A stretch of 61,772 bases of DNA, filler included, from Dimargaris cristalligena (lineage: Eukaryota), in the NCBI GenBank assembly GCA_003614675.1. It is 12 parts of 12 records of this genome, joined end to end, with 100 filler letters (N's around TTAATTAATTAA, not from the genome) between each part and the next. Parts side by side here need not be neighbours in the genome. Positions count along the whole stretch, not along the records: positions 25,980 to 31,041 come from ML003688.1; 11 more parts are not named here. One strand, written 5' to 3'. The notes under the pieces were generated by a model that was not told the DNA's origin, searched no databases, and saw only the letters and a program-made list of their open reading frames with translations. Of this stretch, positions 92-61,772 are shown one piece after another. Position 1 is the first letter of the stretch. Each line of letters starts with the position of its first letter. The position numbers were made by a program, and so were the translations under genes.

Positions 92-282
92 CCCCCCTTA
101 TACTAACTAGTAAGTGTGCCTGCAGTATGTTCCTGACATTTACCTGCATTATCCTTTATTGGTTAGTACTACACCCCCATCCTAATGCTAGTAGCCCACT
201 TGGCTGAGTCTAAGCCATGCCTACTATTAGAAGCCTATCCTCAGGACTCTTGATGGACTAAGAGTGGTAAACCTGGGTGACA
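92..282 (+). mobile_element. 3' part of LTR family A
   Basis: Aligns by eye to ~35130..35324; ends GGGTGACA. Confidence 0.8.
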
Positions 283-5117: not shown

Positions 5118-5217
5118 NNNNNNNNNNNNNNNNNNNNNNNNNNNNNNNNNNNNNNNNNNNNTTAATTAATTAANNNNNNNNNNNNNNNNNNNNNNNNNNN
5201 NNNNNNNNNNNNNNNNN
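5118..5217. other. Artificial contig linker (also 10332-10431, 15544-15643, 20716-20815, 25880-25979, 31042-31141, 36189-36288, 41327-41426, 46453-46552, 51563-51662, 56671-56770)
   Basis: N44 + TTAATTAATTAA (stops in all six frames) + N44, repeated 11 times. Confidence 0.98.
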
Positions 5218-10329: not shown

Positions 10330-10431
10330 CANNNNNNNNNNNNNNNNNNNNNNNNNNNNNNNNNNNNNNNNNNNNTTAATTAATTAANNNNNNNNNNNNN
10401 NNNNNNNNNNNNNNNNNNNNNNNNNNNNNNN

Positions 10432-15541: not shown

Positions 15542-16004
15542 GGNNNNNNNNNNNNNNNNNNNNNNNNNNNNNNNNNNNNNNNNNNNNTTAATTAATTAAN
15601 NNNNNNNNNNNNNNNNNNNNNNNNNNNNNNNNNNNNNNNNNNNATATATAAGTACGACATGATGAAAAAAGAAAGGCACCGTATAAATTAGTAGTAGTTG
15701 TAGTGGTAGTAAAAAATGGTTCTATAGAAACTCCCTGGAGCAGCAGCCATCCCAGTAATCTCGAGCGTGGGCGGGCTAATAAAACCGGCAAATACATAAA
15801 TATGAAATAGAATAGTAGGGACCACGGGATTTAAAGTCTCAATGTAAAATAATAATAAAATAAAAAACAACAGATATGACAGGGGAAAGTGCAGTGATAT
15901 AACAAGTACAGATGATCACCAACTATTTAATAAACCACTGGGGAAACAGAGATTGGGTTGCCCAAACGGGGCGAGGTTGACTTTGGTAAGGCAGAGGTAC
16001 GGGT

Positions 16005-17151: not shown

Positions 17152-17655
17152 GGCTGCAAGGGGTCGACAGTAATGGAGAGGAGCGTGTCCAATCCCAGGT
17201 GGGGGAGATTCAAGCGGTGTTCAGTTCGCAATGGGCGGTTGACCCCACCGGCAAGTATATGCTATCGGAAGGCGGGCGAAATCGGGGAGAGGTTGCGGCA
17301 AACTTATGGACCCACCGGTCAGTGGATGCAAGGAAGAGAGAGAGAGAATGAAAAACAATAACTAGCTGACTCAGCGCCAATGCCAGCCAGAAGGAGTGCC
17401 GAAGGAAAAGGGTTACAAGTAGGAAAGCAACAAGGGATGTATAAAGTACACAATGATGAAAGAAACCGAAAGACCAGCGGGGTGAGGGGGGCAGGCTCAG
17501 GGTGTGTATACACACCGGTTCAGGACCCGAACCCGCACGAGACCCTATCCTCCCTCCCCTTGCTGGTCTCTCCCCTTTCCTTGGCACCTTAACCCCTTTC
17601 CAAAATATAAACAGTGAGGTGCTGCTATTCAATCGATACCAGCCTCTCTAACCTA

Positions 17656-17676
17656 TTATACTACTATTACTACTAT

Positions 17677-17715
<39 letters not shown>

Positions 17716-17744
17716 CACTACTACTACTACTACCACTACTATTA
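17656..17744. repeat. (TAC/ACT)n microsatellite upstream of ARL8
   Basis: Long imperfect TAC tandem run. Confidence 0.9.
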
Positions 17745-20700
17745 CTCGTCCTTTCCTTTCAATTAGCCATGACTGCGGGCCGTGCAGCGAAATCATGTGA
17801 CATCCGGCCCAATTATTCTTCTCTCCACCCAAAGAACGGACCACTGTGCACAGCCAAGTGGTAAATCACCTCTGACTTGGAACATGGTTGGGGGAACAAT
17901 GGGCCGAAGTAGAGCCAAGCGAAAGCCCGCATCAGTCGAACTGGCCATTGGGGAGGGCGTGGTGTAAATGGAAAGATAAGACAAAGGTGAATTCCAACCA
18001 TTCCTTTCCTGGTATGGGCTGAATGTCATATAACCCAGTTCACTAATTACAGCGGACTTTGAATGGGTTGTTTCAGCGAATGGTCCTGTCAATCAAAGCA
18101 GGGATGGCCTAATAGATCCCAGTATTGGTGCAGCACATCCCCCCCCCTTCCCGTGTCTATCCCTGAATTAGCCACCTCTTGGAGTAGAGTCTCCCATCTA
18201 TTGGAATACGGGATATATGGCGGGAAAAGTGTATGCAAATGAGAGGACACCGGCCCCAGGGAATGTCATTATCGAGGCCATAATGATTGGAAATACCAAT
18301 CCTTCCACTCATCCCTTCGCGCCTTCCGTCGAGCTGATTATGCTAGACAGAATCCTTTGCAGTCAACCCGCTAGGTGCCAAACCATTCATTAATCTGCAA
18401 TATAACTTACTTCCCAAAGTATCTACCATTAGGTAGGCTACACCATGGGTTACCCAGCAGGCATTTAGCCCACCTAAAATGATAAAACAAACTAGGACAC
18501 TTCCCGTTCCACAATACTGATATAAAAGCACTCGTTTACGACACTTATCCTCCTGCATATTAAACTCTCTAATAGCTAGTATAACTATATAGATATATTT
18601 ATATATTGGTGAACAAATTAATCCCAAAAACCGCTGACCCTCTAGTGGTATCAGCCATACTAATATATACGCATAAATGCTGGACCCCTTTGGTCAATAT
18701 GAGCATATTCGTCTTACTACCACTGTCTGGGCTAGTAAAAAATAAACAAACCAAATCAAACCAAGATATACAACAGGTGGTCCCATTTCGCCTGAGGCTC
18801 AAATAACTACTGTCCGACTATTCCTTTCGTAATTCGCTATAAACCCCCTAACTACCTGAGTAAGATCAACGATGGTCTGAATAACCAATCCGGAAACCCG
18901 CTAAATATGCTCAAAGTAAAATTTCCTTACTGTAGCGAGGGTGTACCTTGGGCCTAACTCCCTGTGCGAGAAGGTAGTCGGGTAATTTTTCCCTTATATG
19001 TAACCAAAAACGAAAAAAAAGGGGCTTTTATTCGGAATACCACTTGCTCATTGGTCAGAAGGGTGCATGGTATATCACACTAATTTCCGAATACCGGAAG
19101 CAGGCCATAAGTCCTTGGGGCATGAGACGGACCATTAGTTCATCGCAATCCAAGTCGACTCGGTATATGATGCCTTCATGCAGAACGTTGAAATAGTAAA
19201 ATAATACCACTTCTACACGACCAAAACGCGGGGGCATATGGGGCGCAGCGTCAAAAACAAAAGGGTGAGTTAGTGCCACTTATTTATAGTTTGAATTCAA
19301 ATGCAACAATGAATGGGGCGGAGTGGGGAACTGCTACAATATATACAAAATACTTACCAAACCGGTCTAGTTCATCGATCGAGTATGTCTTGTAGGCCAT
19401 TTTGGGCAGACTGTTGAGAGTGGGTGGGCGAGTAAGAACGGCTAGCTGAGGGATAATAGGAAGCCTGTGTGATAAAAAAAAATGGGGTGAGCGAATAATA
19501 GATCAATAGTGGGTAAAATGCCAGCTTTGGGGATGGATTATATGTAATGTGCCCCAGGACACAGAATACCATCCCTTTTTATATTATCAGACATTTGTCC
19601 TGACCCATCCGCCTCCGACTAGAATATACACACGCACTTGGTTAGTATAATCGATAGGGTGAAGCATGTCGTGAACCGTCAATTGTGGATTTCTCCATCG
19701 ATGTGAACCAAGCTCATCAACCGCCGTTAATTTGGGTTAGACAGTGATGGTTGACCCGACAGTCGGATGGTATTGCCCCATTAATAGACAAAGAACTTAA
19801 TGGGCCGCCTCGCTCTTCTGGCATTCCCACCACTTGATCGTTATCCACCCCCGTTATTTTGAATGCACTGGTTTTTGGTCCCCGACCTCGATTTTACAGG
19901 TGTTTAGTTGATATTGCGCGAATTACCAGCTCTCATATCCACGCATTCAGGTCCAACTTCACCTAAGAAGAAAACTCACACGAAACATCCGTGAAAAGGG
20001 CTCTACAATGGAGTGGTGATAAGTGCCAGGAAAGCGACCAGATTCGACAGGGCAGTTTGTGTAAAAGTAATCAATGGGTTGATTATTGAGTGTACATTTG
20101 ATGGATTGGAAGATAGGTTCGGCCCAGGAATAATGGATAATGGCGCCCCATAAGCGGGGCTCCCCTATTTAGATGGCTTATTTCATTAGTAAGGAAAAAT
20201 CAGCCCATCAATCAAAGTAATTGACCTTCTTGGAATATCCCCACAAGTCCTTAGTTCATGAAAGTTGGATTTTCCCTAAAAACAACTACATCGGTGGATA
20301 AGCCTACTATTGCCACCTAGTGATCAATTCCTACTATTGTATTGCAGCGGTGGAATGTATCAAATCCCAAGGAAACCACACCAAGGCATACTGAAGCCCA
20401 ATAAATTACTCATCTTAGATGGTACTGCCATAAATGCCTATAATATGCGTTTAATCATGGATGAGCAATTTCCCCCAGTTTGAACTGCGGTGCCATTGTG
20501 GTAAGCGGGTGCATTTTTATTATTGCTATTAATTATAAAGTCCAGCGGACGTTCCTGTAACTAATAAATATTGGTAAAAGGAACATAATATATGCGGCTC
20601 AAGTGACTATATGAAGTGTACTTTATTCGCTGATAACCAAATATGTGAACTGGATAGCCCATATATATCCCATCCACGTATGCTATTAGGCAAACGTTCG

Positions 20701-20815
20701 GTATATAGTTACAGTNNNNNNNNNNNNNNNNNNNNNNNNNNNNNNNNNNNNNNNNNNNNTTAATTAATTAANNNNNNNNNNNNNNNNNNNNNNNNNNNNN
20801 NNNNNNNNNNNNNNN

Positions 20816-23800
20816 GTACTGGTGTGGCCGGTATTGGTGTTTTTGGTAGCATTGTAGGACATGATCTTGCTGTTGACGAATTCTGTGCTGGGCTATGGGA
20901 CGTATCTCTTGTAGGTGTTTAAGTCGGGCCTCATGGTCAAGTAGATGGACATGATCAGGATTAGTTATGGGGGCAAGTAGTGGATGAATAGGGTCCCCAG
21001 GAATTTTAGGAGGAACCCCATAGAGTAAAGAAAAAGGTGAATAACCATGGGTAGAATGGGTACGAATCCGAATAGAAAGTAAGGCAGCAGGTAAATGTAA
21101 GTCCCAGTTCTTTCGATCTCCAGTAATATAACGCATAAGAATACCCTTGAGGTAACCATTAAATCGTTCTAGCTTTCCATTGGACTGGGGGTGATAAGCA
21201 GAGGTCATAGTATGATGAATTTGTTGAACACTAAGGTATTCATTTAAAGTGCGGGCCAGGAAATTAGCCCCTTGATCAGAAAGTAATTCAGAAGGACAAC
21301 CATAGTGGCAAATAATATTTTCATAAAGGAATTTAGCAACAGTTTTCTCAGTTGCATCAAAGACAGCTAGAGCTACAGGCCAGTTAGTAGCATGATCAAT
21401 GGCAGTAATAATCCAAGAGTTACCACTAGAAGTACGGGGATATTGACCCATGAAATCAATACTCCAGCGTTGAAAAGGTTGTAAAGGTGGATCTAATGGA
21501 TGAGGGACTTGAGGATCCTGTGAACTAGGTTTGATTGTCTGGCACTGAGGACATTGGCGGGTAATAAGTTTGATAGTGTGGTCTTGGTGGGGCCACCAGC
21601 CACGGGCACTAATAAGTTCAGTTAAATGGTGAATACCAGGGTGACCAAAGGAGTCATGCAACTGGCGAGTGAAGGTCTCTTGATTACAGGTAGGAATAAA
21701 AGGAACAGGTTGGTTATTAATCTGCCTAAATAAGGTACTGGATTCTGAGTTCCAGGAAAATAAATGGGATTCTTTGGTAATACGTCTTTGTAAGTCAGTG
21801 GGTAAATGTGAAGGTAATTTGTGGTGTTTTTGATAGTCAGGAACTAAAAGAGGCCAGTCAGAAATATTAATATCAATGGAAGAGTTTTGGACCTGGGATA
21901 AGCGACTAAGGGAATCAGGGACAATATTCTTACTACCTGGTTGATATTGAATTTTGAAATTAAACTGCTGAAGGTACTGAGTCCATTGAAATAAACGGTC
22001 AGATAAACCAGGCTGGGCCATGATATTCTCTAATCCACGGTGGTCAGTGTAAACTGTAAAAGATTAGCTAAGTAAATAGTGCCTCCATAATTTAAGACAA
22101 TGAAAAATGGCCATTAACTCCCATTCTTGGACAGTGTATCTACGCTCAGTATCAGTGAATTTGCAGCTCTCAAAAGCTATAGGCTGAAGGCCAAGGCCAT
22201 GGTCCTGTTGGAGGACACCACCCAGGGCAGTGTTGGAGGCATCAGTAGCAACAGTAAAAGGTTTGGAGAAGTCAGGTATTAATAAAGCAGGAGGGGAACA
22301 TAAGGCAGCTTTCAATTTTTTAAAAGTGGTTTGACAAAGAGAGGACCAGTGTAAGGAAAGTGGTTTACCCTTTAGGGTATCATTTAGAGGGGCGGCAATT
22401 TCAGAATAATGAGGAATAAATTTTCTATAGTAATTACAAAGACCAATAAAGCTGCGAATATCCTTAAGCTTAGTAGGAGTAGGCCAGGACTGGATGCATT
22501 CAATTTTTTTGGGGTCAACACTAACCCGATTGTTTTCAATTATATGACCAAGGTACTCAGTTTGGGAAGTGGCAAAGGAACACTTTTTAAAATTAGCAAC
22601 CAGTTGGTGCTCCTTTAACTTATCCAGTACAAGTTTAACATGAAGCTGATGTTCAGGTAAACTATGACTGTAAATTAAAATATCATTAAGGTAAACAACT
22701 ACAAACTGGTCTAGAAAATCACGTAGTACATCATTAAGAAGAGTTTGAAAAGTAGCCGGGGCATTAGTAAGACCAAATGTCATAACTTTAAATTGGTATT
22801 GACTATAGCGAGTGTTAAAGGCAGTTTTAGGAACATCCAAAGGAGAGACTTGGATCTGATGGTAACCGCTTTTAAGGTCAATTTTGCTGAAAACTATGGC
22901 ACCATGGAGAGCATCAAAATGATCCTCAATCCTAGGTAAGGGATAATGATTTTTAACAGTCTCCTTATTAAGTAACCGGTAATCAATACATAGGCGCCGA
23001 CTACCATCCTTCTTATCTGCAAAAAGGACAGGTGCACCCCAGGGAGAAGCTGCTGGCTCAATCCAGCCTTTGTCTAGGTAATCTTGTAATTGTACCCGGA
23101 GTTCAGTGAGATCTGGTTGGCTAAGCCGATAAGGATGCTTGTACTTGGGTGCTGCCTGTTCTGTATTAATGGTATGGTCAACCCGACGAGGCGGTGGTAA
23201 TCCAGGTGGTATAGGCCCAAATACAGAATCACGGTACTGGTCAAGGAGAGACTTGAGAGGATGATTAGAGGGCAGAGTGAAGTCCGGGGAGATCTCAGAT
23301 AGGATGACTACAAACACAGAGCTAGAAGGATCCTTGAGACACTGGGTAAAACTTTGGGCACTAACAAGTTGGAGTTGAGGCAAAGGTTTAGAAGAGGTAA
23401 TTTGGGAACTGGGGTATCCTTGAAGTAATGTGTTATTCTTATCAGAGAGTTGCAATTGATACTTGTCCCAAATAGGCACAGGTTTCTTCTGTAATATCCA
23501 GGGTTGTCCAAGTATAATATCAAAATGAGAAAGTGGTAAAACATAGGCATTTAAATCATGAATAGAATCCTGAATAGAGAAACAGAGTCGAGTGTATTGA
23601 TTACTAGTAATGATTTCTTGGTTAGCTACTTGAATTTTAAGAGGAACAGGGGTACTAAAATACTTCAATTTTAAATGGTCACAACATACTTGGAAAATAA
23701 AATCATTGGTAGACCCAGGGTCAAAAAGAATCCTTAGTGGCTGGTGTTTGTAGTTACCTAGGAGAGTCAAGAGTGGTCGTGTGGGTGGTAGAGTCAATGT

Positions 23801-24493
23801 CATGGAAGCTTGGGTGTCTGGGGGTGGTAAAAATGTAGTCAGTGTGCTAGTGGGACCTGCGGTGGAGTTTAGGGACATATTGGTGGGTACAGGAAGTTTA
23901 CTGGAAGACCCAAAGCCAGCAGTCCCTCGTGAAGTCTGTGTGAGGGGTTCCTGGGTTAATGTATACCTGGTTAAAATATTAGGTAAGATAATACCCTGAA
24001 CAAGTCGGGAATGAGCTTTGAAAGTAACAGGAAAAGAATTAAGATTGTATAAAGTAAACTTGACGGTTCCCCGATAGGTAGGGTCAATGAAACCACCTAG
24101 TAATAAAATATTGGACTTATATAAACTAGACCGGGGTTGGAGTTGTATATAGTATTGGTTAGGGATTTCAAATATTAAGCCAGAATCAATTAGGGTGCTA
24201 GAATGTTGGGGTATAGTTACTTCACTTAAACAACTAAAGTCGGCACCAGCATTAAAAGGATATGCTTGGAAAGGAAGGGTAGCTTTGGGATGTGCAAGTT
24301 GGGTTGGAATAGTAATAGAAATAAAATCACTGGATTGTTTTTGAGAATTTAGGGTTATGTAATTTTTTTGGTATTTTTTTTTAAATGAGGACTTAGGTAA
24401 ATTAGTAATAACTAATTGTGAAGGTGATGCTGGTGAGAAAGAAGGGTACAGGGTTATTCGCTGGTGGGCAGTACCTGTGGGCTGTCCTGGCCA
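20816..24493 (-). pseudogene. pol: pol (dUTPase-PR-RT-RH-IN) with in-frame TAA at 22064-22066 and YLDD>YLND lesion
   Basis: ORFs 22064..23878 and 20768..22021 share a frame, separated by one stop (YLLS*SFTVYTDH). Confidence 0.9.
23903..24310 (-). CDS. dut: dUTPase domain at the N-terminus of the pol frame
   Basis: Manual translation shows all five trimeric dUTPase motifs (AGADF, PRSS, GFIDPTYRG, RLVQ, RGTAGFGSS), in frame with the ORF starting at 23878. Confidence 0.9.
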
Positions 24494-25485
24494 TCATTTT
24501 TTGTGAGTTCAGTAATCTGGGATAAATGGGTAGGTAAACCAGGACAATCCCGGGCTAAATGTCTACCTTGGCGGCAGCGGAAGCAGAGGCCTTGTGCTAT
24601 ACACTGTTAGCACTCATAAGGAGTTAAGGTCTGAAGCCGGTCCAGCTCCATGGGAGTAGAGTTTGATTGGTATACTGGGGGCCGAGGTCGAAATCCCAAA
24701 GTTGGATTATATGGAGGCCACGGAAAACTCAGGGGTTGCTGTTGCCAAGCTTGTCCCTGGCCAGAGGTAGGTCGAAAATTCTGGGGCCGGAAGTTAAAAG
24801 GCTGATTCTGGTGGATAGGAAAACGAGGGGAAAATGAAGGGTAATTTCCTAAATTAAGGGCCTTAGTTTGGGCTTCAGCCAAGTGAGTAACACCTGAGAT
24901 TAATAAGTCCCGACGCAGGGAAGGATGAAGACCATCTAGGAAATATTTCAGTTGGTCAGCTGCATTCATATCAGGAATTCGAAGAACCAAGTTATTAAAC
25001 TGGGAAATGAAGTTAGATAAGGAATTGCCTTGGCGCAGTTGACTTAATTGGCTCCGAAGGGTAAGGCCCAAGTCTTTGTTTAAAAAGTGGGTAGTGATAG
25101 ACTGTGTAAAGGTAGGCCAGGCCATAATAGGTAGCTGGGCAAGAGCAAGGTTTGGATGGGACTGGACCTCATCGGCTACAGTATGGCGAAACCAAGTGGC
25201 AGCTAAACCATCTAAGGATTCAGAGACAAAGGCCACCCAGTGAGTTCTAGGGATACTACGAAGCTCACAAAACATCTCCATGCTTTGGAGCCAGGCCAGT
25301 GGGTTATCACCAGGGTTTCCTTGATAATGGGGAGGTGTGCCGTGTCCGAGTTTGGCCTGGAGAAGGAGTTGAGCCTCAGTGGAGACAATGGAAGCCAGGG
25401 TATCATTTGCAGCCAGTGGACCTTCAAGAGCACGGATTCGCTCTTCAAGTTGGTGAATTCGGTCAGTCTGGGAGTCAGTGGGCAT
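24454..25485 (-). pseudogene. gag: gag with premature TAA (24607-24609) before the zinc knuckle CFRCRQGRHLARDC
   Basis: Retrotrans_gag-like region (L.G.A..W, LRQG.S..FI..F); the frame resumes after the stop through CX2CX4HX4C. Confidence 0.85.
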
Positions 25486-27082
25486 AATAGAAAATAAAAA
25501 GAAAAGATGCGGTAAAAAGGCTGGGTATATATATAAAAGGTGGTCAAATCGCAAAACGTAGCATCACTATCAAATGTTATGGGATTTGGTAAAAATGTAA
25601 ATAATTCACTGAAAACAATAGATAATCGATGGAAATTAGATTTAAAGAATTTATTAAGAAAAATGAGGAAGAGAAAAGCTGGTTGCCGAATTCAAGAAAG
25701 TGCGAAGTTGCTGGTATTTATATGGCAAGGAACTAGTGATAAATATAGCCGTTCCTGGTTACAATCAGAGGCTATCTATATTTAAGATTGATGAGCTCGT
25801 TGAACAATGGGGACCTGTGGTAAATTACAAAGTGATGGTAGATTGTGAACAGGTGGTAAATGATGAATTGATGGTAAACNNNNNNNNNNNNNNNNNNNNN
25901 NNNNNNNNNNNNNNNNNNNNNNNTTAATTAATTAANNNNNNNNNNNNNNNNNNNNNNNNNNNNNNNNNNNNNNNNNNNNAAATAAGAATCGCCAATAAAA
26001 TAACAAACGTCGACGGCATCTATTAACGATAATGGAGGGTCCCCAGCCAACATATAAAGGGGTGCTCGAGGACTTGCATAGGCTGTTACATTGTGTATGA
26101 AGCTGAAGCGTGCAAAAGTAATTAGGTTGGAAGTGCAAAATACCAGTTGGCCTGATGCAATACAATTTCCTAAATACAAGCCAATACAAGGATGATTTTT
26201 AATATTATGCTTGGAATACATAGTTGGCAATTGACCACTCCATTATTTGTGTGGCTCTATCAAAAAACTAAAACCCATAAAATCCCAGTTGCAAAGCAAC
26301 ACAGAAAATGAATCTGATAGATGACAAGGTAACCCTTGAATAAAGTCACATATCCCACCATTTACTCAGAATGACTGCAACCCGCCACTATATTGGAATA
26401 TTATAGCACTACACAGTGCTATATATGATGGAAAGAGCAAAATCTAAACAGGAAGGTGATTTACGGTAAACATAATACTGGGAGGAAGAGAGCCAAAGCA
26501 ATGCATCATGTCCTGGGAGAGGCAACAATAGTAATGCTTCACATTATATGATTGTTTTGTAGGATCGGTTCTTATTACATAAAAACCAAACATGGATATA
26601 TAGTAATATCACTAGCTGTTCTTTCTCTTTTATAATATACTTTTAAGATATTTAACAGAGCACTTGAATTTGGCCCTTAATTAATCATTCCAACCCCATG
26701 ACCTAGTGTACATCCGATTGACATTTGGTTTTCCTAATTTTCTAGATGATAAATGTCGAGGGCGTGTACTATAAAGGCCATGTACCACATTCGATATGGA
26801 GTGTGGTCGCTGAAACCTTATTTCCAACCGCTGGGCATTACGACGGCAATGATTCAACTGTATTGTGGTTACTGCTGTCTAAAGACAATTGACGCTTCAA
26901 AACAGCTATAAGTCTAGATTCTGTGTTTCTATGGTGACACGTCGGTTAAGATGAATATGACATGTAAATTGATATTATTTAATTCAAAAAATTAAAGTGC
27001 ATCCACCAATGCATGTCACCAAATGCCGGTTTTTGTTGCCAGGTCTAGCAAATGAATGTTTACAGCGATCCCAGGTGATGGG

Positions 27083-28288
27083 CTACGCCCCATGGATACT
27101 TTTCATATGCGAAGTGTGACTATTTTGCCAATAAAAAGATTCCTGACATTTCGCGCAGATATAAGATTTCGCCTCAGTGTGCACTTTGGCATGGGCGGTA
27201 AAATGGTCTATCCGCTTATATGATTTCTCGCAATCACTGCAGCTATAAGGCTTCTCCCTAGTATGCACTTGAATGTGTCTCTTTAGATGAGCGGATAATT
27301 TAAATGCTTTTTGGCAAACATCACAGATAAAAGGCTTCTCCCCGGTGTGCGTTCGCATGTGGACATTACAGTTGCTTTGTAATGAGAATGATTTGTCGCA
27401 CTCGCTGCAGTGATAAGGCTTATCCCCAGTATGTGTTCGGATGTGACTATTTAGTTCACTAGGTGCTGTAAATGATTTCTCACAATCCTCACAGCGATGA
27501 AGCTGCTCCTCGGTATGTAATCGCATATGTTTCCCGAGGGAATTGGGATTTGAATACACCTTGGTACACTTCTCACAGGGATAGGCCTTTGCTTTGATAG
27601 GGGTATCGGTATCAATCCCGAGTTCCTTCGGGGCCTTTGTCAAACTTTCCCCTTGATCATTGGCAGATAGCCTCCTCATGCTGGGTAATACTGAGTGATT
27701 GTCATGACGAACAGGGTCCGGGAGCTCGGATTGTCGGTGATGGTGGCTGGTGGGCTCTAATTTCGTCGGTTCTCTTTTCTGGTACTCAATTTGTTGGCCC
27801 TTGGATAGCGATGTACTTGCAACAATGGGATCCCAATCCACACCAGATGAATAATCGAATAGAGTGGGAGCCAAAGTGTCATATTCTGTCTCACTATCCG
27901 CGTCAATCGCATCGTTTATGTATTCTTCTGGATAGGGAAGACTCCTAATCGGCATGAGCTGATTGTCGAGATAGGCAGAGCCAAGTGCGGCTTCTATTTG
28001 GTAAAGCCCCGCTACTTCATTCTCACCCATGGTCTGCCTGACCTGGTCAACGAATTGCCCTAATTCATTCATGTCGAATTGAGCAACTCGATCGATGGTC
28101 TCAGATAATGGTGGGTCCTCGGGATAGGGACCTGGGAGTAAACTAGAGACTGCGTTGCCGTAACTAACCTGAGGGTCATTGGGGTAGCCAATATAGTCGT
28201 TAGGGTTGAATTCCGTATCGTACTCTTCAGAGGCACGGGCTACGGAGAGAAACACCAGAACTAATCCAGCCGTTTTGAACACACGCAT
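27083..28288 (-). CDS. Signal-peptide-bearing protein with six tandem C2H2 zinc fingers (401 aa)
   Basis: First in-frame ATG gives MRVFKTAGLVLVFLSVARA/SEE; acidic N-half; six CX2CX12HX3-4H fingers with TGDKPY/TGEKPF/TREKPY linkers. Confidence 0.88.
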   Translation of the reverse strand: MRVFKTAGLVLVFLSVARASEEYDTEFNPNDYIGYPNDPQVSYGNAVSSLLPGPYPEDPPLSETIDRVAQFDMNELGQFVDQVRQTMGENEVAGLYQIEAALGSAYLDNQLMPIRSLPYPEEYINDAIDADSETEYDTLAPTLFDYSSGVDWDPIVASTSLSKGQQIEYQKREPTKLEPTSHHHRQSELPDPVRHDNHSVLPSMRRLSANDQGESLTKAPKELGIDTDTPIKAKAYPCEKCTKVYSNPNSLGKHMRLHTEEQLHRCEDCEKSFTAPSELNSHIRTHTGDKPYHCSECDKSFSLQSNCNVHMRTHTGEKPFICDVCQKAFKLSAHLKRHIQVHTREKPYSCSDCEKSYKRIDHFTAHAKVHTEAKSYICAKCQESFYWQNSHTSHMKSIHGA

Positions 28289-29639
28289 CTTCGGACCGCT
28301 TCTTAGGAGTTTTTGCGCAAAGTGGGCGGTTAGGGAGTATCGCTTCAGACAGAAACGGAAAAACAACAACCAAGCAAATTGCGTTAATTACTAAAAAAAT
28401 CCGTAAAATCGTCGCTAAATTTATGTTGTGGGGCTGCAAAAATATATGTTGATGTAAGCGCAATAAGGCTAAACGGCAGGCACACCGGGCGGGAGACGTG
28501 TCATAGCAAAAATAGGTAGGGGTGGTATATATATATGGCATTTATGGGAATATGCATAGGATTAGCACTGACGAATAAATAATACTTACCAGTTGCATGG
28601 TGCTACATCCTGTACCATTAAATGCACCAATGCTTTACCGTTAAGGTCTATTCTATGGTTACATTGTTCAGCAATGCTGATATAAGTGCATATTCACTAT
28701 TACTTGATTGTAAGAGGACTCAGTCAGTAATATAGTTTTCCTCTACGGGACTCTTTTCATTCACAACCGGGGAAAAGGTGTTGTCGATACTGGCGAGGAA
28801 GTATTCCCAAGTGACACAAGTGTACATCATACACCGCAGGTAAAGCCATTAATTAGCCAATGAAGTATATGAGGCAGGGCGTATTTCTACAGCGGTTCTA
28901 TTTTGAAAATATTAGATATACTAATATATAAGCTCATAAAGTAGGGATTAGAACCACTGTTGGACTCTGGTCTAAAACTGTTACATTAAGTAATACAAGC
29001 GAAGAGTAATATCTTCCTTCCAACACGGCCTGAGGACGCTGAGACCAGCTCCCTAATGGTAAAAATTGTGTTACTCACTGGGTTAGAGGAGACGTTTCCA
29101 GGTGTGGCTGCAGTTGTGTTACCGCTAAGATCTGGCCATATGGCACTAGGTTTAGGCTGATGGTTGAGGACAATGATACATTTTTTATAGGAATCGTGAT
29201 GTTGAATGGTGGCTTTCCTCGAAGATAGTTAGGGACCTTGGCCAGATTTGATGAAACAAGGGATATATGAAACATATTAATATGTATATTCCAAATCCCA
29301 TTCCCCATTACATATGGTTGCCATGCAATTGTTGATACTGCGCCACTGGGGGCACCATGTACCAGGCCGGCCACCCCTGTCAACAGACTCGCGACCAAGC
29401 CACCACAGGCACCTACTCCACCATTGACATCTATCGGCCCCGAGGCCACTACAGGGATACAGCCCAAGACCACATCGTCAATTAACAGGGATCATATTGG
29501 TACTCCATCATAAATGGGAAAGTTTTCCTTCTCCCAATATGGCTCCTTAGATGACTATGTTCCTATCAGCTTATTATTATATTCCATATGTTAGGCCTCA
29601 CTCCCACCTCATCACTGCTATTAGTAAAACCACTCATCT

Positions 29640-30290
29640 ATATGCAGTGCCATCTGGCAGTCAGTACTTACCTCCAGACTATGAGTGGCCAGTCTACACC
29701 AGTGAAGGGCAGAAAATGCTGGGATATACAGTGGAGGCACCATTTCCACAGTTTTCCCACTGATTTTGCCGCCTATACCATGACCATATACTAATACAAA
29801 AATACCTTTAGCTATTTCTACACTCACAGTTTGCATTTACAAGTCTGAATCAATTTGTTTTGCATTAAAAGTCTGACATAGTTATGAGTGCTCTTATTTC
29901 ATTTATCTACATTCTTTTCTATTAGTTGTTGGAATACTAAGGACATAAAGAAAATAAAATTGGAAGTAAGGGAAGAAGGCAGCTAGAGGACAGTAGGTGC
30001 CTCTAGGTGGTTAGTTTTATTGAATTGTAATTTTTATGAGGTAAAACATAAGTGTCTAACATAAATGATCTCATGATAGCAGAATAAACTAACATAATTA
30101 GGTAAACCAGGATAGGATAAAGAACATGTAGGAACATATTCTTCAACATTAGTTCCCTCTTTCTGTTATTAACATTATCCAGCAGCCTCTAAGGCCCCCC
30201 TAAAGGTTACATAAGTAACCAGCAGAATTTACTCCCTCTTAGAAAGTTGTTATAACCAACTTGTTTAATTTTATTCCATTTTTTTTATCC
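29640..30290. repeat. Degenerate dispersed repeat (family D), similar to ~45055..45500
   Basis: Shared blocks GTGCCATC.GG, CCAGACTATGA.TGG, TTTGCCGCCTATAC, AAAAGTCTGAC, TTATCCAGCAGC, GGTTACATAAGTA.CCAGCA. Confidence 0.65.
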
Positions 30291-30685: not shown

Positions 30686-31041
30686 TGTCGCCCGAGTTAA
30701 CCACTCTTAGTCCGTCAAGAGTCTCGGGGGTAGGCTTCTAACAGTAGGCGGGGCATTGGACATGGCCAAGCGGCTACTAGTGTTAGGGATGGCGACAAGA
30801 CTAACCGAATGAAGCAAGTGTAAGATGTAGGTGAGGTCCGTGCACTAGATGCATACTTACTAGTAAGTACAAGGGGGGGGGTGAGTATATATAGAGTATA
30901 TTGAGGTAAACTGGGGGATATGAATAAGCTGCTGTTAACCGGTCCCAAAGGGGAGCCCGGTTATATATACGCTGAGGAGGCCTCCAGAGGGAGGTCCCAA
31001 GGGGGAACTACATAATGGCTAACAATAAGGTGGAACTGGAA
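30686..31041 (-). mobile_element. LTR family A, 3' part, truncated by contig end
   Basis: Starts TGTCGCCCGAGTTAACCACTCTTAGTCC, the reverse complement of the LTR 3' end. Confidence 0.8.
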
Positions 31042-31141
31042 NNNNNNNNNNNNNNNNNNNNNNNNNNNNNNNNNNNNNNNNNNNNTTAATTAATTAANNN
31101 NNNNNNNNNNNNNNNNNNNNNNNNNNNNNNNNNNNNNNNNN

Positions 31142-32019: not shown

Positions 32020-33665
32020 TTAGTAGGAGTGGTCAAAAAGAATACGAAGCCCTCTACCAACCCATTTAATACTCTCCTTTACGGTGTATTTTTCAGATTC
32101 GGGATGCATCTTGGTGATGACGGGGTCGGCACCCTGCCGCTCAGCCTTTTTAGAGTGGTAATGCTTAATACGGACAGCACGCTTTTGAATCTCTTCGGCA
32201 AATCGGTAATCCTCCACCTTGCGGCCTGTGATAGAATTCTTCAGCTCAGGTTTATCCAAGAGACCGGGCGTTTGGATACCAGCCGATGGCACACTTTGAA
32301 TCAAATCCCCCTCGTCTGTCAACTGGAAGACTTGGGTATATAAAGGAATAGTATTCCACGGATGAGTTAATAATGTGTTGCCACGGGCGGTCGGGGGCCA
32401 CACTGCATTCAAGTTACGTGAGGCGGTTTGCATATTTCGGTACTGAAGGGTTGTCCAATAGGCCTCGCGGGTAATAAGCGGCTCCCCAACCTTTGAGCCG
32501 GTATCGACAGAGACTTCCAGGATACGTAGTACTTCGCTGACTATGGGTTCATCTTTGCGAAGGGTCGCCAAAGTAATGATCATAAACGCCAACTGGTGAA
32601 TATAATCCACCACCATTTTAATGGCCTGAGAGCCAGAAATAGTGGCAATTTGCTTGACGGCATGTTTGAAGAATAACATAATCTCGGCGTGGCGCTTGGG
32701 CTCGCTGTAGAGGCGCCAAATACTGGCTGCCAAGATCCGAATGGCGATCAAGGGAAGTTGATTTTCCAGGCACAATGCTTCGGAAACGGGCCCCACGTTC
32801 AGTAAAGTCGGGCTGTCAAATAGTTGTACGCTTGTCGCCGTGTGCGTACTAAAACTAGTGACAATGATCTTTTCCCACAGTGCTACTAGTTGATGTCCGT
32901 TGACATTCGCAGTCATGGGAAACTCTTTTTGGAGTTCCTCTTCACCCAATTTAGCCATATTGATGGCCACTCGGTGGTTGTTGGCTAGAAACGGGCTGCC
33001 TTGGTTTAGCTTCAAGAACTTTCCGAATTTCGCAGCGGTAAAATAACATTCATCGTAGACGTATCTTTTGCCACTTTCATGGATTTTGGTACAGTGATTG
33101 AAACTAGGCCCAAAACGCGAGTCGATGCTCGTCAGCAAAGTATCCCACACTTCCAGGCCGGCTTGATGCAACCATGTGGGGGTCATGGCGTTCCAGGCTT
33201 GTTGACTGGTGTATATATTGAATTGCTGCTGAAGCAGGGTATCCCAGTCTCCAAGGGGCTGGTAATCAGGAAAAATAAAGGGCAGTATACTAATATTATT
33301 AAGAGGTATATTATACGGGGCTTGTGTAATTAGGCTATAACCGTATGGAATGTACTTAAAAATATGTGAATAGGCAGTATGGCCGGTTAAGGCCGGTCTA
33401 TTATTGCAGGCAGTGTTTTCGTTAATGCGTGGTATACCAATAAACTTATGTTATGAATTACCTTGTTAACCCAGGAGTATTTTGGGACCTGGCCTATCAA
33501 ACCAGCGCGAGTAGGGTCTATTTCATATTCGGGTGACTCTGAGATGGCAGTGCTACCCGTGGATACCTCAGAAGATTCAGTGGCCGCATAAGGCAAAGAA
33601 GCGCGGGTGTTGGCAACCTGGAGTAAGTGAACCGAAAAAGAAAATACAGATATAGGCACTCTCAT
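32020..33665 (-). CDS. Orphan predicted secreted protein; exons 33665-33462 and 33258-32020 (~480 aa)
   Basis: Hydrophobic N-terminus MRVPISVFSFSVHLLQVANTRA; phase-0 intron AAG/GTAATT...CTGAT.ACCAG joins the two ORFs. Confidence 0.7.
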
Positions 33666-34732: not shown

Positions 34733-35324
34733 TGTCAGCCCTTCTAATCCACCTTAATCTGAACACCAGGCTGACCACCCTTATTCTACCTTATAGTGCT
34801 ATATCAACCTTCCCATAGTTACCCCCAGTACTATGGGATCACCCTATATCATATAACCCTTCCCCTTCCCCTTCCAGACCCCAGCTCTTCATACTAATCA
34901 CTCAGCATGCTAATCCAAAGACTCTTCCAGTTACCCTAAGAGTCTTCCAGATCCTAGTAGCCATCTGGTTGGCCTGTTTTCACTACATACCTTAGTTATC
35001 CATAGTCTTCCCTTGGGACCTCCCTCTGGAGTTGACCCCACATATATATAACTAGGTCCCCTTGGGACTGGTTAGATTCCTTAGCTTATCCTTACTACTT
35101 AGTTTACTCCAATAAACTCTATATATGCTCACCCCCTTGTACTGACCCATAAGTATGCCCACTGCATGTCCCTTGTATAACTAATCACCTAGGCCTTTAT
35201 TAGTTAGTATAATACCCCATACCTAATGCTAGTAGTCCACTTGGCCAAGTCTAAAGCCCTGCCTACCAATAGAAGCCTACCCCTGGGACTCTTGATGGAC
35301 TAAGAGTGGATAACCCGGGTGACA
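34733..35324 (+). mobile_element. Complete solo LTR (family A, 592 bp) with 5-bp TSD ACACC
   Basis: TGTCA...TGACA termini; ACACC at 34728-34732 and 35325-35329. Confidence 0.9.
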
Positions 35325-35912: not shown

Positions 35913-36089
35913 TATCACCTGGGTTAACTACTCTTGGTCCGTCAAGAGTCCTGAGGGTAGGCTTCTAATGGTAGGCAGGGCTTAGGCTTAGCTAAGCAGG
36001 CTACTAATGTTAGGGTGGGTGTAGTACTAACCAATAATAGATAGGTGTAGACAGATGCAAGGGACGTACAGCAGGCACACTTACTAGTT
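35913..36089 (-). mobile_element. LTR family A fragment
   Basis: TATCACCTGGGTTAACTACTCTTGGTCCGTCAAGAGTCC matches the reverse complement of the LTR 3' end. Confidence 0.75.
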
Positions 36090-36180: not shown

Positions 36181-36685
36181 CTGCCCCTNNNNNNNNNNNN
36201 NNNNNNNNNNNNNNNNNNNNNNNNNNNNNNNNTTAATTAATTAANNNNNNNNNNNNNNNNNNNNNNNNNNNNNNNNNNNNNNNNNNNNCATTTATCACCT
36301 TCTATATCATAGTTATATTTCGTTTATCACTTTCTGTTTTCATTCATCTCTTTATATATCATTAGTGCAGCGTATTTACCTTTTATCTGAAGTATACAAT
36401 AGCAGAACCAGCGTAGATAGAATCATCTATTATATTTACTGCCCAATATTTTCGGGGTATAAATACCCCTTCAAATCGCAACCTGAATAAAACATCTTCA
36501 TTTTTGGACTCTTTTCCTTGGTATAGAATTGTATCGGCTTATAGCCTGCAGTTCTTTGACTATTTCAGATTATTGATTATTATTAACTAGTGCTTAGGCA
36601 ATTTTCGCTATTTCTATAGCCGTCGGGACTTATTATTCATTCCGCTTTATTAAGTTTTTCCCATCGCTGCACAACAGCCAAGGAA

Positions 36686-38630: not shown

Positions 38631-40991
38631 AATTTGTCGGTACTATGGGTGTGTTGGGGGGGGGTATACAGAAAATAATAATGAACGACTCGTGCGTTGT
38701 CGTAGGTGTATTTCTTACAGAGAACTTTTTAAATGGAGCTACGGGAGGTTGAATCAAAGTGTCTTGGTCCGGGAAAGTTGAGCGAAATAAAGCCACCCTC
38801 TTGACAATCTAGAATTAATAAAAAGTAGCTGCCAAAGCGGTATGGTCGTAAAAAAGGGGGAAATAATGATAAATCTCTGTGACCTGCATTCAATTGCTTG
38901 AGGATCGGCGATGACCCCCTTTTAATACATTATTAGAGAGGATATCGACGGCGTTTTCACCCCTCTCCCTATAGCTAGACTCACTAACATAACGCCAAGT
39001 CACACCCTATAACCATCTCCCTGCGTCAACTCCGCTTCCATTTCTCTTTGACGAACGGGATCTTGCCTATTCGCTGGTTATGGTTGACCTCCCCTGTCCC
39101 TCTTTGATTCCGGAATACCTGTTACTATTTTTAGCCAGTGGGAAGCTCGGGTAACTCGGATATTAATTAATTCCCATTTCCGTTCCTCTGTCCGCTTGGG
39201 CTGCTTTAGTTCCCCCCTTCGCCTCCCCCTGATGATTGTTCACCTGTTCGTATGACCGGTTGGCTATAGTTATGCTGCGTTGGCAGTGGCGAATCGCCGT
39301 CCGCTTACTATCTCAACGACACGGTTGAATATGGCCAAGTGAGAATCGGGGAGCTGTCCCATGTCGAATCAGGGAAAAGAGGCAATGGCCCCCGTACATT
39401 AGCGCAGGACAGGGGGGCACCCGTCCCTCTCAGGGCCCATTTGCCCTCGACATGCTTTAACCGATATTTACATTGTTAGCCGGTTAGTCGACTCGCCCTC
39501 CCCCTAATTTTAAGGCCTGGATGCTTCGCTAGGTTAATTAGAGTCCACTAAATGCCAATCATTGCAAGCCGGAGAGGACGTACAGTGAACGTTCGGATCT
39601 TGGCTGAACAGCCTACTTTCTACAGACCCTATAATTTTACTGTCAGGTCGGAAAATGGAATTTGCATAGTCTAAGGAGGTAGAATTACGCATTCGAGCCT
39701 TCCACTCCGTTGATTAAGCCCTACATAGTGGGGTGTATAACGGCTAGGGGTCTCGGTTGAACTACTATCCGTTTCCAGTTCTCATTCCTTTCCCTTTGTG
39801 AGACATTGTAGCACCAGCGGCTTCACTTTATGGGCGGAAAAAAGCCAAGTCGGGCTGTTCGGAGGATATAATGATTCCAAATTACTATAGATGGCCCGTT
39901 AATGGTGTTTAATGTCACTGACAATGTGGAGGATACCCGGTGGTTTTATCGAGTTTAAGGTGTATCTTAGAGATAGGCAGAGGTCCGAGTGAGAAAAGGG
40001 TAGAGGGGTAGCTATGAACCATATTGGGGGCCCCTCAATAGCAATGAAAGTAGGACGGTCACGGCTAGAACAAGGTACACCATATTTTCCGCCGGCCTTG
40101 ACAGGAGCTGGGGTCCCTTGTAGGACGTATAGAGCTTAAGGGCAATGGGAGAGGCTCACACATAATGGAAGGCTCAAAGGTACTTTTGTACCCAAGGCCC
40201 ATCGGCACTAATATGTAGTCGCGTTTCCGGACAATTCTTTACGGAAGTAGCCCTATGTAGCACCATTGTGAGTCAAGATTAGTTTTGGAAGCAAGTACAC
40301 CGGCTAACCTACCCTCCTTAAAAGTAAGCGAGTAAATATTATTAGAACTATTAATGCAGGGCGCGGAATAAATCTGTGCCTTTAGACGTAGTTTTAGTTT
40401 CACAATTCTATGCGCCTCGATTTTAAAAAAAAATGCACAAGGCTATGTGTTAAGTTACTTGTCTAAAGCAGGCCAACTTTTATACCAATGGCCCCATAAT
40501 AGTATATAATATAATATGAAATACGGTGATAGGAGGCAAGGAATTAGGCATTGTGGCACGTATATGGGTGGCAAGACCCGCGACAATGACCAACATCAAA
40601 AGCCACGGGATGAATGTATTAGTTGAAGCGAATTCAGATATTTGTCATGAGTGTTGTAAGGGGAATGGTTGAGCATCAGGGCATAATGCAACTTTACTTG
40701 AAGAGCCGAGAAGCACACCTTTATTGAAGGATTATTTTGTTAGATAATTATATATCCCGTTCCATCAATTCCATCTCTCTGATTGGCTCATCCTATACTT
40801 AGGACTATTATATCTCTGATTATATTGTCCCATACTCAGGGCATCATTTTTATTGTGAACAAGCAAGTGGAATGAGTGTCTTTATTGAGAGGGAATATGC
40901 AGTATGTAACTAATAGAGACATTACAATTGCTAGTAAACTGAGGGAATTGAGGAGTGTGGCCAATACACTTTTTAAATGGCTAATACATAA

Positions 40992-41326
40992 TGTCACCCA
41001 AGTTTACCACTCTTAGTCTATCAAGGGTCCTGAGGATAGGATTCTAATAGTAGGTGGGGCTTAGGCTTGGCCAAGCAGGCTACTAGTATTAGGGAAGGGG
41101 TAGGTACTAACCCAATTGTTGCCCGAATTAACCACTCTTAGTCCATCAAGAGTTTCGGGGATAGGCTTCTAATGGTAGATGGGGTGTTGGGCACAGCCAA
41201 GTGGGCTACTAGCATTAGGTGGGGCTAATACTGACTGAATAAAGCAAGTGTCATTATGTATGCGGGGGACATGCACTGATGCACACTTACTAGTCAGTAT
41301 GGGGGGTGAGCATATATAGGGTTTAT
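40992..41326 (-). mobile_element. Two nested LTR family A 3' ends (starting 40992 and 41117)
   Basis: TGTCACCCAAGTTTACCACTCTTAG, interrupted by TGTTGCCCGAATTAACCACTCTTAG. Confidence 0.8.
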
Positions 41327-41426
41327 NNNNNNNNNNNNNNNNNNNNNNNNNNNNNNNNNNNNNNNNNNNNTTAATTAATTAANNNNNNNNNNNNNNNNNN
41401 NNNNNNNNNNNNNNNNNNNNNNNNNN

Positions 41427-41956
41427 TTTATTATCTATCTTTTCAAATAAAGTTCAGTTTTCAAGGATTTGATTTCAGTTCATTACATCATCTATTATAT
41501 AACCCTTCTCCTTCCAGCCCCAATGCTTTGCACAAAACACTCCAACCAGCTAATCCAAATGACTCTTCCAGTTCCCATGAGAGTCTTCCAGATACAAAGC
41601 CATCCAGTCAGATTCTTTATCTACCTATACCTTAGTATTAGTAGCATTCCCCTTGGGACCTCTCTCTGGAGCTGTCCCCGTGTATATATAACTGGGCCCT
41701 ACTGTGACTGGTTCGATTCCTTAGCTTATTCATACCCCCCATTTACCTCAATAAACTATATATACTCACTCCCTCATACTAACTAGTATGTGTGCCTACT
41801 ATACATCCCTTGCATTTACCTGCACTTGTCCTATATTGGTTAGCACTATGACCCCATACTAATGCTAGTAGCCTGCTTGGCCAAGTCTAAGCCCCACCTA
41901 CTGTTAGAAGCCTATCCTTGGGACTCTTAGACTAAGAGTGGTTAACCCGGGCAACA
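41427..41956 (+). mobile_element. LTR family B end (to 41487) inside an LTR family A copy (to 41956), which abuts a partial MITE C (41957..42049)
   Basis: Identity to 31..91; family A end GTTAACCCGGGCAACA; MITE C half follows. Confidence 0.75.
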
Positions 41957-43139: not shown

Positions 43140-44638
43140 ATGAATCTTTCCATTTCTACATTTACTCTCGCCGTCGCGGCTCTGGGCATTCCCCGTACTG
43201 AGTCTAGGCCTATGGCATATATCCCTGGATCCGGGCTACCATATCTTAATAGCCTATCCAACGAACTGCGTCGTATCGTTGCCCAGTACTCGTCTAGCTA
43301 TACGCGCAACCAACTCTCCCAGCTGAATAGGGCATGGCGGGCTGGTACACGTGAATCTTCCATGGAAGCTGTAAGAATTTACCAGGATGCCCTATGTGAA
43401 TATAGACGCTATATTCGGAGAAATATAATGGCACTTAGTATAATGGTGTTCAGTAACTACCGACTAACACTCCTGTATTCATTATAAAATTGATATTGCA
43501 TATTAATGGACCACTATAGACGAAAAGTCTGGGTCAAACATTCGCCTCTTCAATCCAATTCTACAGCGTCATTTCCGAACCCGACAAGATCCCCATCCTC
43601 GATAAAATTATTCAAGATGATGTTGAAAAGAAGGCCGAAAGTCTCGCTCACGACTGGATGACTCTTTTTAAACACGAAACTTACGTGTACCTCAGCATGC
43701 GCCTCGATCATAATATAAAGGTCCGACCTAGCGACAATCAACTCGGCGAGTTAAAGAAGCGCTTATTCAAAGAAGTCCATTCCCATGGTGTAGTGCTGGT
43801 TGATGGTCTGGAGGACAAGTCTCTGTATTCGGCGTTTCCCATTCTCCAAGTGGCTCACGAGCTGACTGTCCCGGAATTCACCGGGTTATTGAGCGCCCTA
43901 TTTGGGCCTGAGTTGGGGAGCTCGTTGACGTTGGCCACTTCAAGTACCCTGGCACCCAAGAGCTACCAGCCCCTCGTCCAGCATCTCCTTATGGCTGCCA
44001 AGAGCGATATCTACGAAGTCACTCTATTCCACGTCATCTGGCACTTATTCCAGAAAGCGGTTAGCGCGCTTCCCGATTCCGGAGCCGAAACTTTTAATAA
44101 GATCAAGGAGTTCTTTACGACTACGTTGGGTCCTGCTCGTAACGAAATTGTGGCGATATCAAATACCAACCTCACCAATTACGCCCGTTTTGCACTCGCC
44201 CTGGCTGCCCGATCGTTCCAGCCACGTGCTGGGCACCAAAGCAACGAAGCAACCAAGGCGGCTATCCACGATATGGCCGCGTTCTTTGATAAACTGGTGG
44301 GCTGGGACAGTGTAGCAGAAGAAAGCCTTGTGTCAGTTCAACAGTATCGTACCGCGTATCTAACTTGTTTAGATACTAAGGAAGTGATGGGTGCTCGCGA
44401 CTATCTCCTCGAGTATTGGCCGCAATTAGACCAGATTAATCAGGGTATTTCAAACGAGCCTAGAAGTTCCCCGATCGCCCCTTTCGTTGAGGCGGTTGAC
44501 GATGGCCTTGACGATGCCTATTGTGACGAAATCCTATTTAGCGAGTCCCGAGTCTTTTGGTCGAATGAAGGATTTGGCATGGCTGCGGCCAAAGATTTTC
44601 TTGATCAGAAGTATCTGAGCCAGTACCGCTTTGGATAG
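43140..44638 (+). CDS. Predicted secreted protein with N-terminal F-box-like motif; exons 43140-43370 and 43520-44638 (~449 aa)
   Basis: MNLSISTFTLAVAALGIPRTES; YLNSLSNELRRIVAQYSSSYTRNQLSQLNRAWR; phase-0 GTAAGA..TAG intron joins the 43658 ORF frame. Confidence 0.75.
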
Positions 44639-61575: not shown

Positions 61576-61772
61576 GTAAGTATTTATTAATTTAAAAGGC
61601 ATTGGTTATGGACCGGTTTGCCTCTCTCCCCCTGATTTATGTATGTATGCATGTATGCGTATATCACCAACGCACTATTTGGTACTGTTAATGTAAACTA
61701 ATCTCAGCCCACTCTTCTTTTATTTGTTCGGCCAATCCGGTACATTAATTTTACATTACTTAGTGCAATGTA

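Follow-up and report, generated by a model that had tools for sequence, protein, structure and literature searches.

Main finding

The stretch of DNA analysed here, called the window below, is 61,772 nt of Dimargaris cristalligena sequence (GenBank assembly GCA_003614675.1), and its minus strand holds, at 27083..28288, an intact open reading frame (ORF) of 401 codons plus a stop. The encoded protein, P0001, has a signal-peptide-like leader, an acidic region, and six C2H2 zinc fingers. The reading we prefer, with a probability of about 0.35, is that P0001 is an exported DNA-binding protein that acts on a host, i.e., a candidate effector. It builds on the ORF itself, its domain make-up, the restriction of its N-terminal domain to a single species, and the character that the leader keeps among paralogues.

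On this reading, P0001 would be made as a pre-protein with a cleavable signal peptide for the endoplasmic reticulum (ER), cut after A-R-A19, and the mature form would consist of a disordered, acidic, Cys-free region followed by a DNA-binding-type array of six fingers. Because the n-region is positive and the flank after the cut is acidic, a working leader would put the finger array on the lumenal/exported side. The protein would then leave the parasite cell. With MoHTR1-3 of Magnaporthe oryzae as the model, the most plausible place for the exported array to work would be the nucleus of the host. We infer the steps of this path (start codon, ER entry, cleavage, export, host uptake, nuclear import, and DNA binding) from sequence features and from that analogy.

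A host is at hand. In the available text of PMC9866270, the Dimargaritales are described as biotrophic mycoparasites of Mucoromycota and some Ascomycota that use an appressorium and a haustorium, and D. cristalligena, as a haustorial biotrophic mycoparasite, therefore has a host available to receive effectors.

The reading frame and its protein

The locus is a real protein-coding gene of D. cristalligena, a fungus of the Kickxellomycotina. The stop-to-stop frame around the ORF runs for 434 codons, and we estimate the chance of an open frame of that length at ~1e-9, i.e., (61/64)^434. The 401-aa product begins MRVFKTAGLVLVFLSVARASEEY, and the protein collection searched does not hold this exact sequence. 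A full-length search gave 2,464 matches, and the best 120 of these are all generic finger arrays, mostly from animals. Most of those 120 rows show 31-47% identity over 35-49% of the query; a few rows among the matches listed show 29-35% identity over 65-91% of it.

The six fingers lie at aa 238-399 (27092..27577, minus strand), exactly where the preliminary description of this DNA had placed them. Both Pfam and a regular expression find them, and all zinc ligands are intact (24/24). Written as C-x2-C-x12-H-x3-5-H, the fingers occupy aa 238-258, 266-286, 294-314, 322-342, 350-370, and 378-399. Pfam support is strong for zf-C2H2 (PF00096, E 1.4e-25, 88.6 bits against a cut-off of 25.2) and for zf-H2C2_2 (PF13465, E 9.1e-29, 98.6 bits against a cut-off of 40), and a Pfam scan of P0001 at E up to 0.1 finds no family besides the fingers.

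The five linkers between the fingers are TEEQLH, TGDKP, TGEKP, TREKP, and TEAKS. The linkers had been described as TGEKP-type, which holds for three of the five, while TEEQLH and TEAKS are degenerate. The protein belongs to the C2H2 family and to the class of tandem arrays with TGEKP-type linkers, and it is predicted to bind DNA. Its best matches in the Protein Data Bank, which span residues 210-389 only, are DNA-bound arrays: ZNF568 (E 1.8e-77), Aart (1.7e-59), PRDM9 (1.4e-44), and CTCF (5.4e-42). To our knowledge, long finger arrays are uncommon in fungi.

Between leader and fingers lies a region of 215 residues (aa 21-235; 27584..28228, minus strand) that has no Cys and carries 39 D/E against 15 K/R, in agreement with the acidic stretch reported earlier. 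It contains the family motifs of alignment A1, i.e., PPLSETID, LGxF, TMG, QIE, YLxNQL, and DWDPxVAS. AlphaFold2, run on the N-terminal 235 aa with a 7-row alignment, gave a mean predicted local distance difference test score (pLDDT) of 39.3, with 207/235 residues below 50, so this part of P0001 is predicted to be disordered. An ESM Atlas search with residues 1-235 returned no usable match. The protein ends in ...SIHGA, which is not an ER-retention ending of the KDEL/HDEL type.

The leader and the start codon

Residues 1-20 (28229..28288, minus strand) have the layout of a signal peptide: a basic n-region (MRVFK), an uncharged hydrophobic h-region (TAGLVLVFLSV) within the usual ~7-15 residues, and a c-region with small residues at -3 and -1 (A-R-A before S20). 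The preliminary description had seen such an N-terminus at the first ATG, and hydropathy bears this out. The best 9-residue window in P0001 is LVLVFLSVA, with a mean of 3.09, and the only 11-residue Kyte-Doolittle windows above 1.5 are those starting at residues 3-10. The same windows reveal no second hydrophobic segment anywhere in the protein.

The leader is not peculiar to this one locus. At four of the six family loci, the gene model opens with the aligned start Met and then carries two basic residues (a single one in P0251). These four leaders follow the pattern M-[RH]-x-x-K, an uncharged core with a 9-residue hydropathy of 2.78-3.09, and small residues at -3 and -1. Aligned, with the cut site as a slash, they read MRVFKTAGLVLVFLSVARA/S, MRVFKTVGFILAFISLARA/S, MRVFKVSSVVLAVLSMICGSEA/N, and MHACKMTGLLSLLFLVCTSGA/N. 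The models of the remaining two loci say nothing about the leader, as they begin only at positions that align with residues 57 and 87.

Comparison with P0244 is instructive: 6/20 leader residues differ from those of the P0001 locus, and every swap is hydrophobic for hydrophobic. Residues that vary while hydrophobic character stays are as expected of a signal peptide under selection, to judge by these alignments. As a control, we took 120 unrelated finger-array proteins (the best of the 2,464 matches), among which 5/120 reach a hydropathy of 2.0 and 1/120 reaches 2.78.

The surroundings of ATG 28288 suit a start codon. There is an A at -3, and the 215 nt upstream (28289..28503, minus strand), a putative 5' untranslated region, are free of ATGs on the coding strand, whereas 28504-28700 holds eight. 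The first 99 nt upstream of the ATG are open in the ORF frame, with an in-frame stop at 28390. A TATA-like run, TATATATATA (28526..28535, minus strand), lies ~240 nt upstream and may be a promoter element. In alignment A2 the start Met is invariant, in a column filled by four loci only. The arrangement fits a transcript that begins within 28289-28503 and has ATG 28288 as its first AUG, and this ATG is most likely where translation starts.

Two further observations concern this region. An ATG-started frame of 104 codons (28227-28541, minus strand) runs across the 5' end of the finger gene in a different frame, and it would be an upstream ORF if transcription began above 28541. Directly after the putative cleavage site, aa 21-40 (28169-28228) show an acidic/aromatic pattern in 4/4 leader-bearing members (the set of the P0001 locus, P0244, P0250, and P0251: SEEYDTEFNPNDY, SEEYDPEFNFDDY, SEANNPELDPADP, ANDSELDFNNTVLY), which could be a sorting or uptake motif.

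A family confined to one species

The N-terminal domain is restricted to D. cristalligena. Searched against 1.84 billion representative sequences, the N-terminal 235 aa gave matches from this species only (7/7), as did a profile search with the domain (5/5). The database searched also covers proteins of Tieghemiomyces, Dispira, and D. xerosporica, none of which matched.

The seven matching clusters hold ten proteins, which correspond to the finger-gene locus and at least five others, i.e., at least six loci. Two locus-tag prefixes occur among them, and we read these as two assemblies. At 27-52% identity, the family alignment keeps the motifs PPLSxxID, LGxF, TMG, QIE, YLxNQL, DWDPxVAS, and HDNxSV. 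One member, P0244, runs on into a finger and has a basic cluster, KRPRK, just before its first finger. In addition, one contig each in runs X5 and X4 matches both a piece of the N-terminal domain and a piece of the finger region at a spacing of 692 vs 685 nt. With spacing so nearly identical, there is therefore at least one further locus with the full architecture. Within the window, a tblastn search of P0001 against the other 11 contigs found no paralogue and returned finger self-matches only.

Animal DNA contamination was considered as a source of the finger array and rejected: a single frame encodes both the N-terminal domain and the fingers, runs from two studies contain the locus at a read depth like that of other contigs, and the family occurs on D. 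cristalligena contigs of up to 68 kb.

Evidence against export and alternative explanations

Several observations weigh against export of P0001, and we give them here together with the alternatives that they favour. Some are general. The leader was judged by our own hydropathy and -3/-1 heuristic. No classical nuclear localisation signal (NLS) turned up when P0001 was scanned for [KR][KR]x[KR] or for three K/R in a row; finger arrays are themselves able to act as import signals. Zinc fingers that are exported also have to fold after crossing the oxidising secretory pathway. Finally, the public models of the family are all fragments of 89-211 aa, and the models of two loci lack a leader.

The alternative that survives best, which we consider a serious possibility though a doubtful one, is that P0001 regulates transcription in the parasite's own nucleus, as an ordinary factor with fingers and an acidic activation region; the hydrophobic stretch would then be no ER signal, and translation would start elsewhere. 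Its layout speaks for it, since in the standard activator arrangement C2H2 fingers come after a disordered acidic region. Finger arrays are normally nuclear, and even a weakly hydrophobic N-terminus is found in only 5/120 of the control arrays. The start could be internal, at M73 or M87, and the two paralogue models that begin at positions aligned to residues 57 and 87 agree with this. Alternatively, it could lie in an upstream mini-exon, which would give a basic N-terminus of 41 residues without acidic ones.

The mini-exon comes from the public model of the finger-gene locus, RKP33625.1 (P0243, 129 aa), whose sequence is obtained exactly, to the letter, when 28598-28590, 28342-28043, and 27756-27676 are joined. 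The mini-exon itself, ATGCAACTG (28590..28598, minus strand), has 9 nt, ATG CAA CTG (MQL), and is followed by a GTAAGT donor. Spliced to 28342, it puts 21 residues, MQLRYSLTAHFAQKLLRSGPK (MQL plus 18), in frame before MRVFK, i.e., ahead of the leader. The first predicted intron (28343..28589, minus strand, 247 nt) has splice signals that look good, i.e., its GTAAGT donor, a TTAAC branch-like site, and a pyrimidine-rich run before the AG of the acceptor (28343/28342). The P0244 model has the same layout, MCL followed by RYSLTVHFPQELLRSSPK, under a different locus-tag prefix (H4R33 vs BJ085DRAFT).

However, the public model is a poor one. Its second intron (27757..28042, minus strand, 286 nt) causes a frameshift and takes out a stretch, aa 88-170, whose protein sequence is conserved in P0246, P0249, and P0250. 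The model is unreliable for this reason, and the second intron is probably wrong, judging by the paralogues. As far as can be told, P0243 is an ab initio model, and we infer that it is part of the single-cell D. cristalligena assembly of PMC6784888. The string 'transcriptom' is absent from the main text of that paper, so the annotation was probably made without RNA support.

Other details also argue against the mini-exon. Two ATGs, at 28608 and 28618, stand 10 and 20 nt upstream of its own ATG, whereas the 215 nt before ATG 28288 contain none. The 18 extension residues show A>V, A>P, K>E, and G>S between the P0001 locus and P0244, whereas the leader differences are all conservative. We put the chance that the 21-residue extension is real at roughly one in three. 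Even then, the hydrophobic core and A-R-A would still fall within the first 40 residues and could engage the ER, so that ER entry would be weakened rather than lost. It is also not evident why a nuclear factor should retain such a core in 4/4 leader-bearing paralogues.

The preliminary description had called the gene intronless and had taken an upstream exon as evidence that would tell against a secreted product. The frame is indeed continuous, but the public model of the locus has two introns. The upstream exon, with its 9 nt and 21 residues, is formally on record there, in a model that is poor elsewhere.

A second alternative, which we think unlikely, is a young lineage-specific family subject to drift or decay, with a frame still open but a protein whose function is not maintained, and with leader and fingers that merely remain from a fusion which came about by chance. 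Sequence variation bears on this. Contigs from run X5, which belongs to another study, cover 26600-29200, including the ORF, with 23 differences and no indel listed. The ORF differences listed are K171Q, P174S, T229I, D289E, and H391L, plus one synonymous change at C322. The protein P0242 has K171Q and P174S as well, together with L11Q, A17T, and N109D.

Taken together, the comparison of the window with X5 and P0242 gives 8 non-synonymous to 1-3 synonymous differences, the range allowing for up to two further ORF differences that are not itemised. With 951 non-synonymous and 252 synonymous sites, the dN/dS ratio (omega) of the ORF is ~0.7-2.1, from a small sample of nine to eleven substitutions. 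An omega of <=0.1 is rejected (p 2e-4 to 2e-3), as drift would predict, and an omega of 0.3 is rejected with 1 synonymous difference (p 0.03) but not with 3 (p 0.16). Divergence in the ORF (0.75-0.9%) equals that of the flanks (~0.9-1.0%). Between the two sequence versions, ORF divergence thus looks neutral, with purifying selection not detectable in the comparison.

Individual changes add to this. L11Q puts Gln in the hydrophobic core of the leader and lowers its hydropathy from 3.09 to 2.03. In run X4, codon 169 reads TAG instead of TAC, turning Tyr169 into a stop (window position 27782, C for G), at a depth of 17.5/17.5 in the only contig there. The GC content at third codon positions (GC3) of the ORF is 0.47, vs 0.60-0.75 in the elongase, SNF2, and PHD genes; the Ty3 element has 0.33-0.43, and the ORF is near the contig background. 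Against a paralogous contig aligned to 27935-28122, differences fall on first, second, and third codon positions in the ratio 7/7/3 (a hand count covering 17 of 35 differences). The fragmentary public models of the family and the position of the gene on a small, repeat-carrying contig also accord with decay.

Some of this evidence can be read in two ways. High dN/dS is also a usual signature of effectors, and the variation pattern suits a fast-evolving effector or an unconstrained, drifting gene alike. The stop at codon 169 is not seen in runs X1 and X5. D. cristalligena is non-haploid and shows cell-to-cell polymorphism in amplified libraries, according to the available text of PMC6784888 and PMC9866270, so the stop in this one library may be an allele or an amplification error.

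Other evidence speaks against drift more plainly. Paralogues that are only 27-52% identical nevertheless keep their motifs, the start Met, and the hydrophobicity of the leader, which decay would not leave behind, nor would it leave a frame of 401 codons. All 24 zinc ligands are present, and run X5 has no listed indel across the ORF. The other version also has two changes that bring it closer to the finger consensus: TGDKP>TGEKP in a linker and His>Leu at position +4 of a helix. The open frame, the intact ligands, and the motifs and leader character retained at such low identity argue against pure drift.

Very improbable, finally, is an organelle-targeted or membrane-anchored protein, in which the extended N-terminus (MQLRYSLTAHFAQKLLRSGPKMRVFK..., with six K/R and no D/E ahead of the hydrophobic core) would serve as a bipartite mitochondrial presequence, which we take it to resemble, or as an uncleaved signal anchor: the idea hinges on the predicted mini-exon, the P0250 and P0251 models lack the 21-residue extension (P0251 begins five residues before the Met that starts P0248, a model of the same locus), the uncharged core of ~12 residues is short for a membrane span, and no function in the intermembrane space is known for a DNA-binding array of six fingers.

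The locus and its surroundings

The window is not a continuous piece of genome. It consists of 12 contigs, arranged from the longest (5,117 nt) to the shortest (5,002 nt) and chained by 11 spacers of the form N44-TTAATTAATTAA-N44, which lie at 5118-5217, 10332-10431, 15544-15643, 20716-20815, 25880-25979, 31042-31141, 36189-36288, 41327-41426, 46453-46552, 51563-51662, and 56671-56770. Because unrelated contigs have been joined artificially, gene-neighbourhood readings across spacers are invalid. For example, the Ty3/gypsy element (20768-25563), the SNF2 helicase gene, and the PHD and ELO genes all lie on other contigs, and we therefore rejected any linkage of the finger gene to them.

The finger gene's own contig is 25980..31041 (5,062 nt), bounded by the spacers at 25880-25979 and 31042-31141, and sequence beyond these is unlinked. 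The gene is the sole stop-to-stop frame of >=150 aa on it. Two dispersed repeats found by blastn lie on the same contig, both upstream of the gene. The first (30686..31004) has 73-81% identical copies on at least four other contigs of the window (92-282, 35010-35324, 35915-36015, 40991-41326, and 41649-41956), and the second (29640..29883) is 73% identical to 45056-45299. The gene had been said to sit alone in a repeat-rich contig; this is not confirmed as worded, since the window as a whole is 12 contigs joined together, although the gene's own contig does hold these two repeats and no second frame of that length.

The other contigs carry elements of their own. On the first contig there is a fatty-acid elongase gene whose product is 83/79/75% identical to the elongases of Tieghemiomyces parasiticus, Dispira simplex, and Dimargaris xerosporica. 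A Ty3/gypsy-type retroelement (20816-25563, minus strand) encodes gag, a dUTPase domain ahead of the protease, reverse transcriptase, RNase H, and integrase, with its frame split at ~22063/22064. Three long frames, at 32020-33450 (minus strand, 476 aa), 43520-44638 (plus strand, 372 aa), and 59637-61595 (plus strand, 652 aa), have no Pfam match at E <=0.001 and may be further orphan genes of D. cristalligena. A microsatellite-like array of TAC/TACTAT type with period 9 occupies 17641-17764.

Comparison with known systems

Tandem arrays with TGEKP-type linkers are familiar from animal-type proteins such as ZNF568, Aart, PRDM9, and CTCF, and in this respect P0001 is like them. Proteins of that kind carry a KRAB, SCAN, PR/SET, or BTB domain or none, whereas P0001 has a hydrophobic leader instead.

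The transcription activator-like (TAL) effectors of Xanthomonas are pathogen-delivered, modular, repeat-built DNA-binding proteins that act as transcription factors in the host nucleus. The preliminary description had drawn a parallel with them, which stands as an analogy of function but not as membership of the family, since no sequence is shared. TAL effectors have another fold (34-residue repeats), are delivered by type III secretion, and come from another kingdom. The repeats of P0001 are finger units of 28 residues (84 nt), not the 33-35-residue repeats with repeat-variable diresidues and a type III signal that mark a TAL effector.

A broader version of the preferred reading, which we hold only tentatively and regard as doubtful, is that a small family of multi-finger, sequence-reading C2H2 proteins is exported via haustoria into Mucorales nuclei, where it would rewire host transcription, with its rapid turnover reflecting an arms race over host target sites. 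If true, these would be the first transcription-factor-type effectors in fungus-on-fungus parasitism and the first natural effectors built on a modular poly-zinc-finger array. Because the recognition code of finger arrays is partly predictable, their host targets could be guessed and the guesses tested. If P0001 is not exported, the locus is instead a warning case, in which gene-model uncertainty puts a textbook-looking leader on a transcription factor; such uncertainty can arise where a single-cell assembly is annotated without RNA evidence.

Effectors have scarcely been characterised in early-diverging fungi that live as haustorial mycoparasites, and the open-access full text searched yielded no paper describing a family of this kind, either from Dimargaris or from mycoparasites. 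The general idea of a zinc-finger nuclear effector, put forward in the preliminary description as a new concept, is nevertheless already published. According to the available text of PMC7672089 and PMC10189765, MoHTR1 and MoHTR2 of M. oryzae are secreted, enter rice nuclei, and bind promoter elements there, and MoHTR3 combines a signal peptide with an NLS and a C2H2 domain.

Compared by description, P0001 and MoHTR1-3 have much in common. The MoHTRs, as presented in that text, combine an N-terminal signal peptide with a C2H2 domain, are confined to one species, come from a biotrophic fungus, and act in host nuclei. The N-terminal domain of P0001 likewise has a restricted, lineage-specific distribution, and secretion, uptake, and DNA binding of P0001 would be the counterparts of the remaining traits. 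There are also differences. The MoHTRs are described there as small, with 'a' C2H2 domain and flanking basic residues, whereas P0001 has six tandem fingers, 3/5 of its linkers TGEKP-like, behind an acidic region of 215 residues. The host of the MoHTRs is a plant, whereas that of P0001 would be a fungus, and its lineage is an early-diverging one. If exported, P0001 would therefore be a variant of the known MoHTR principle and not a new concept; if it also reaches host nuclei, it would extend that principle from plant to fungal hosts and from a single finger to a six-finger array.

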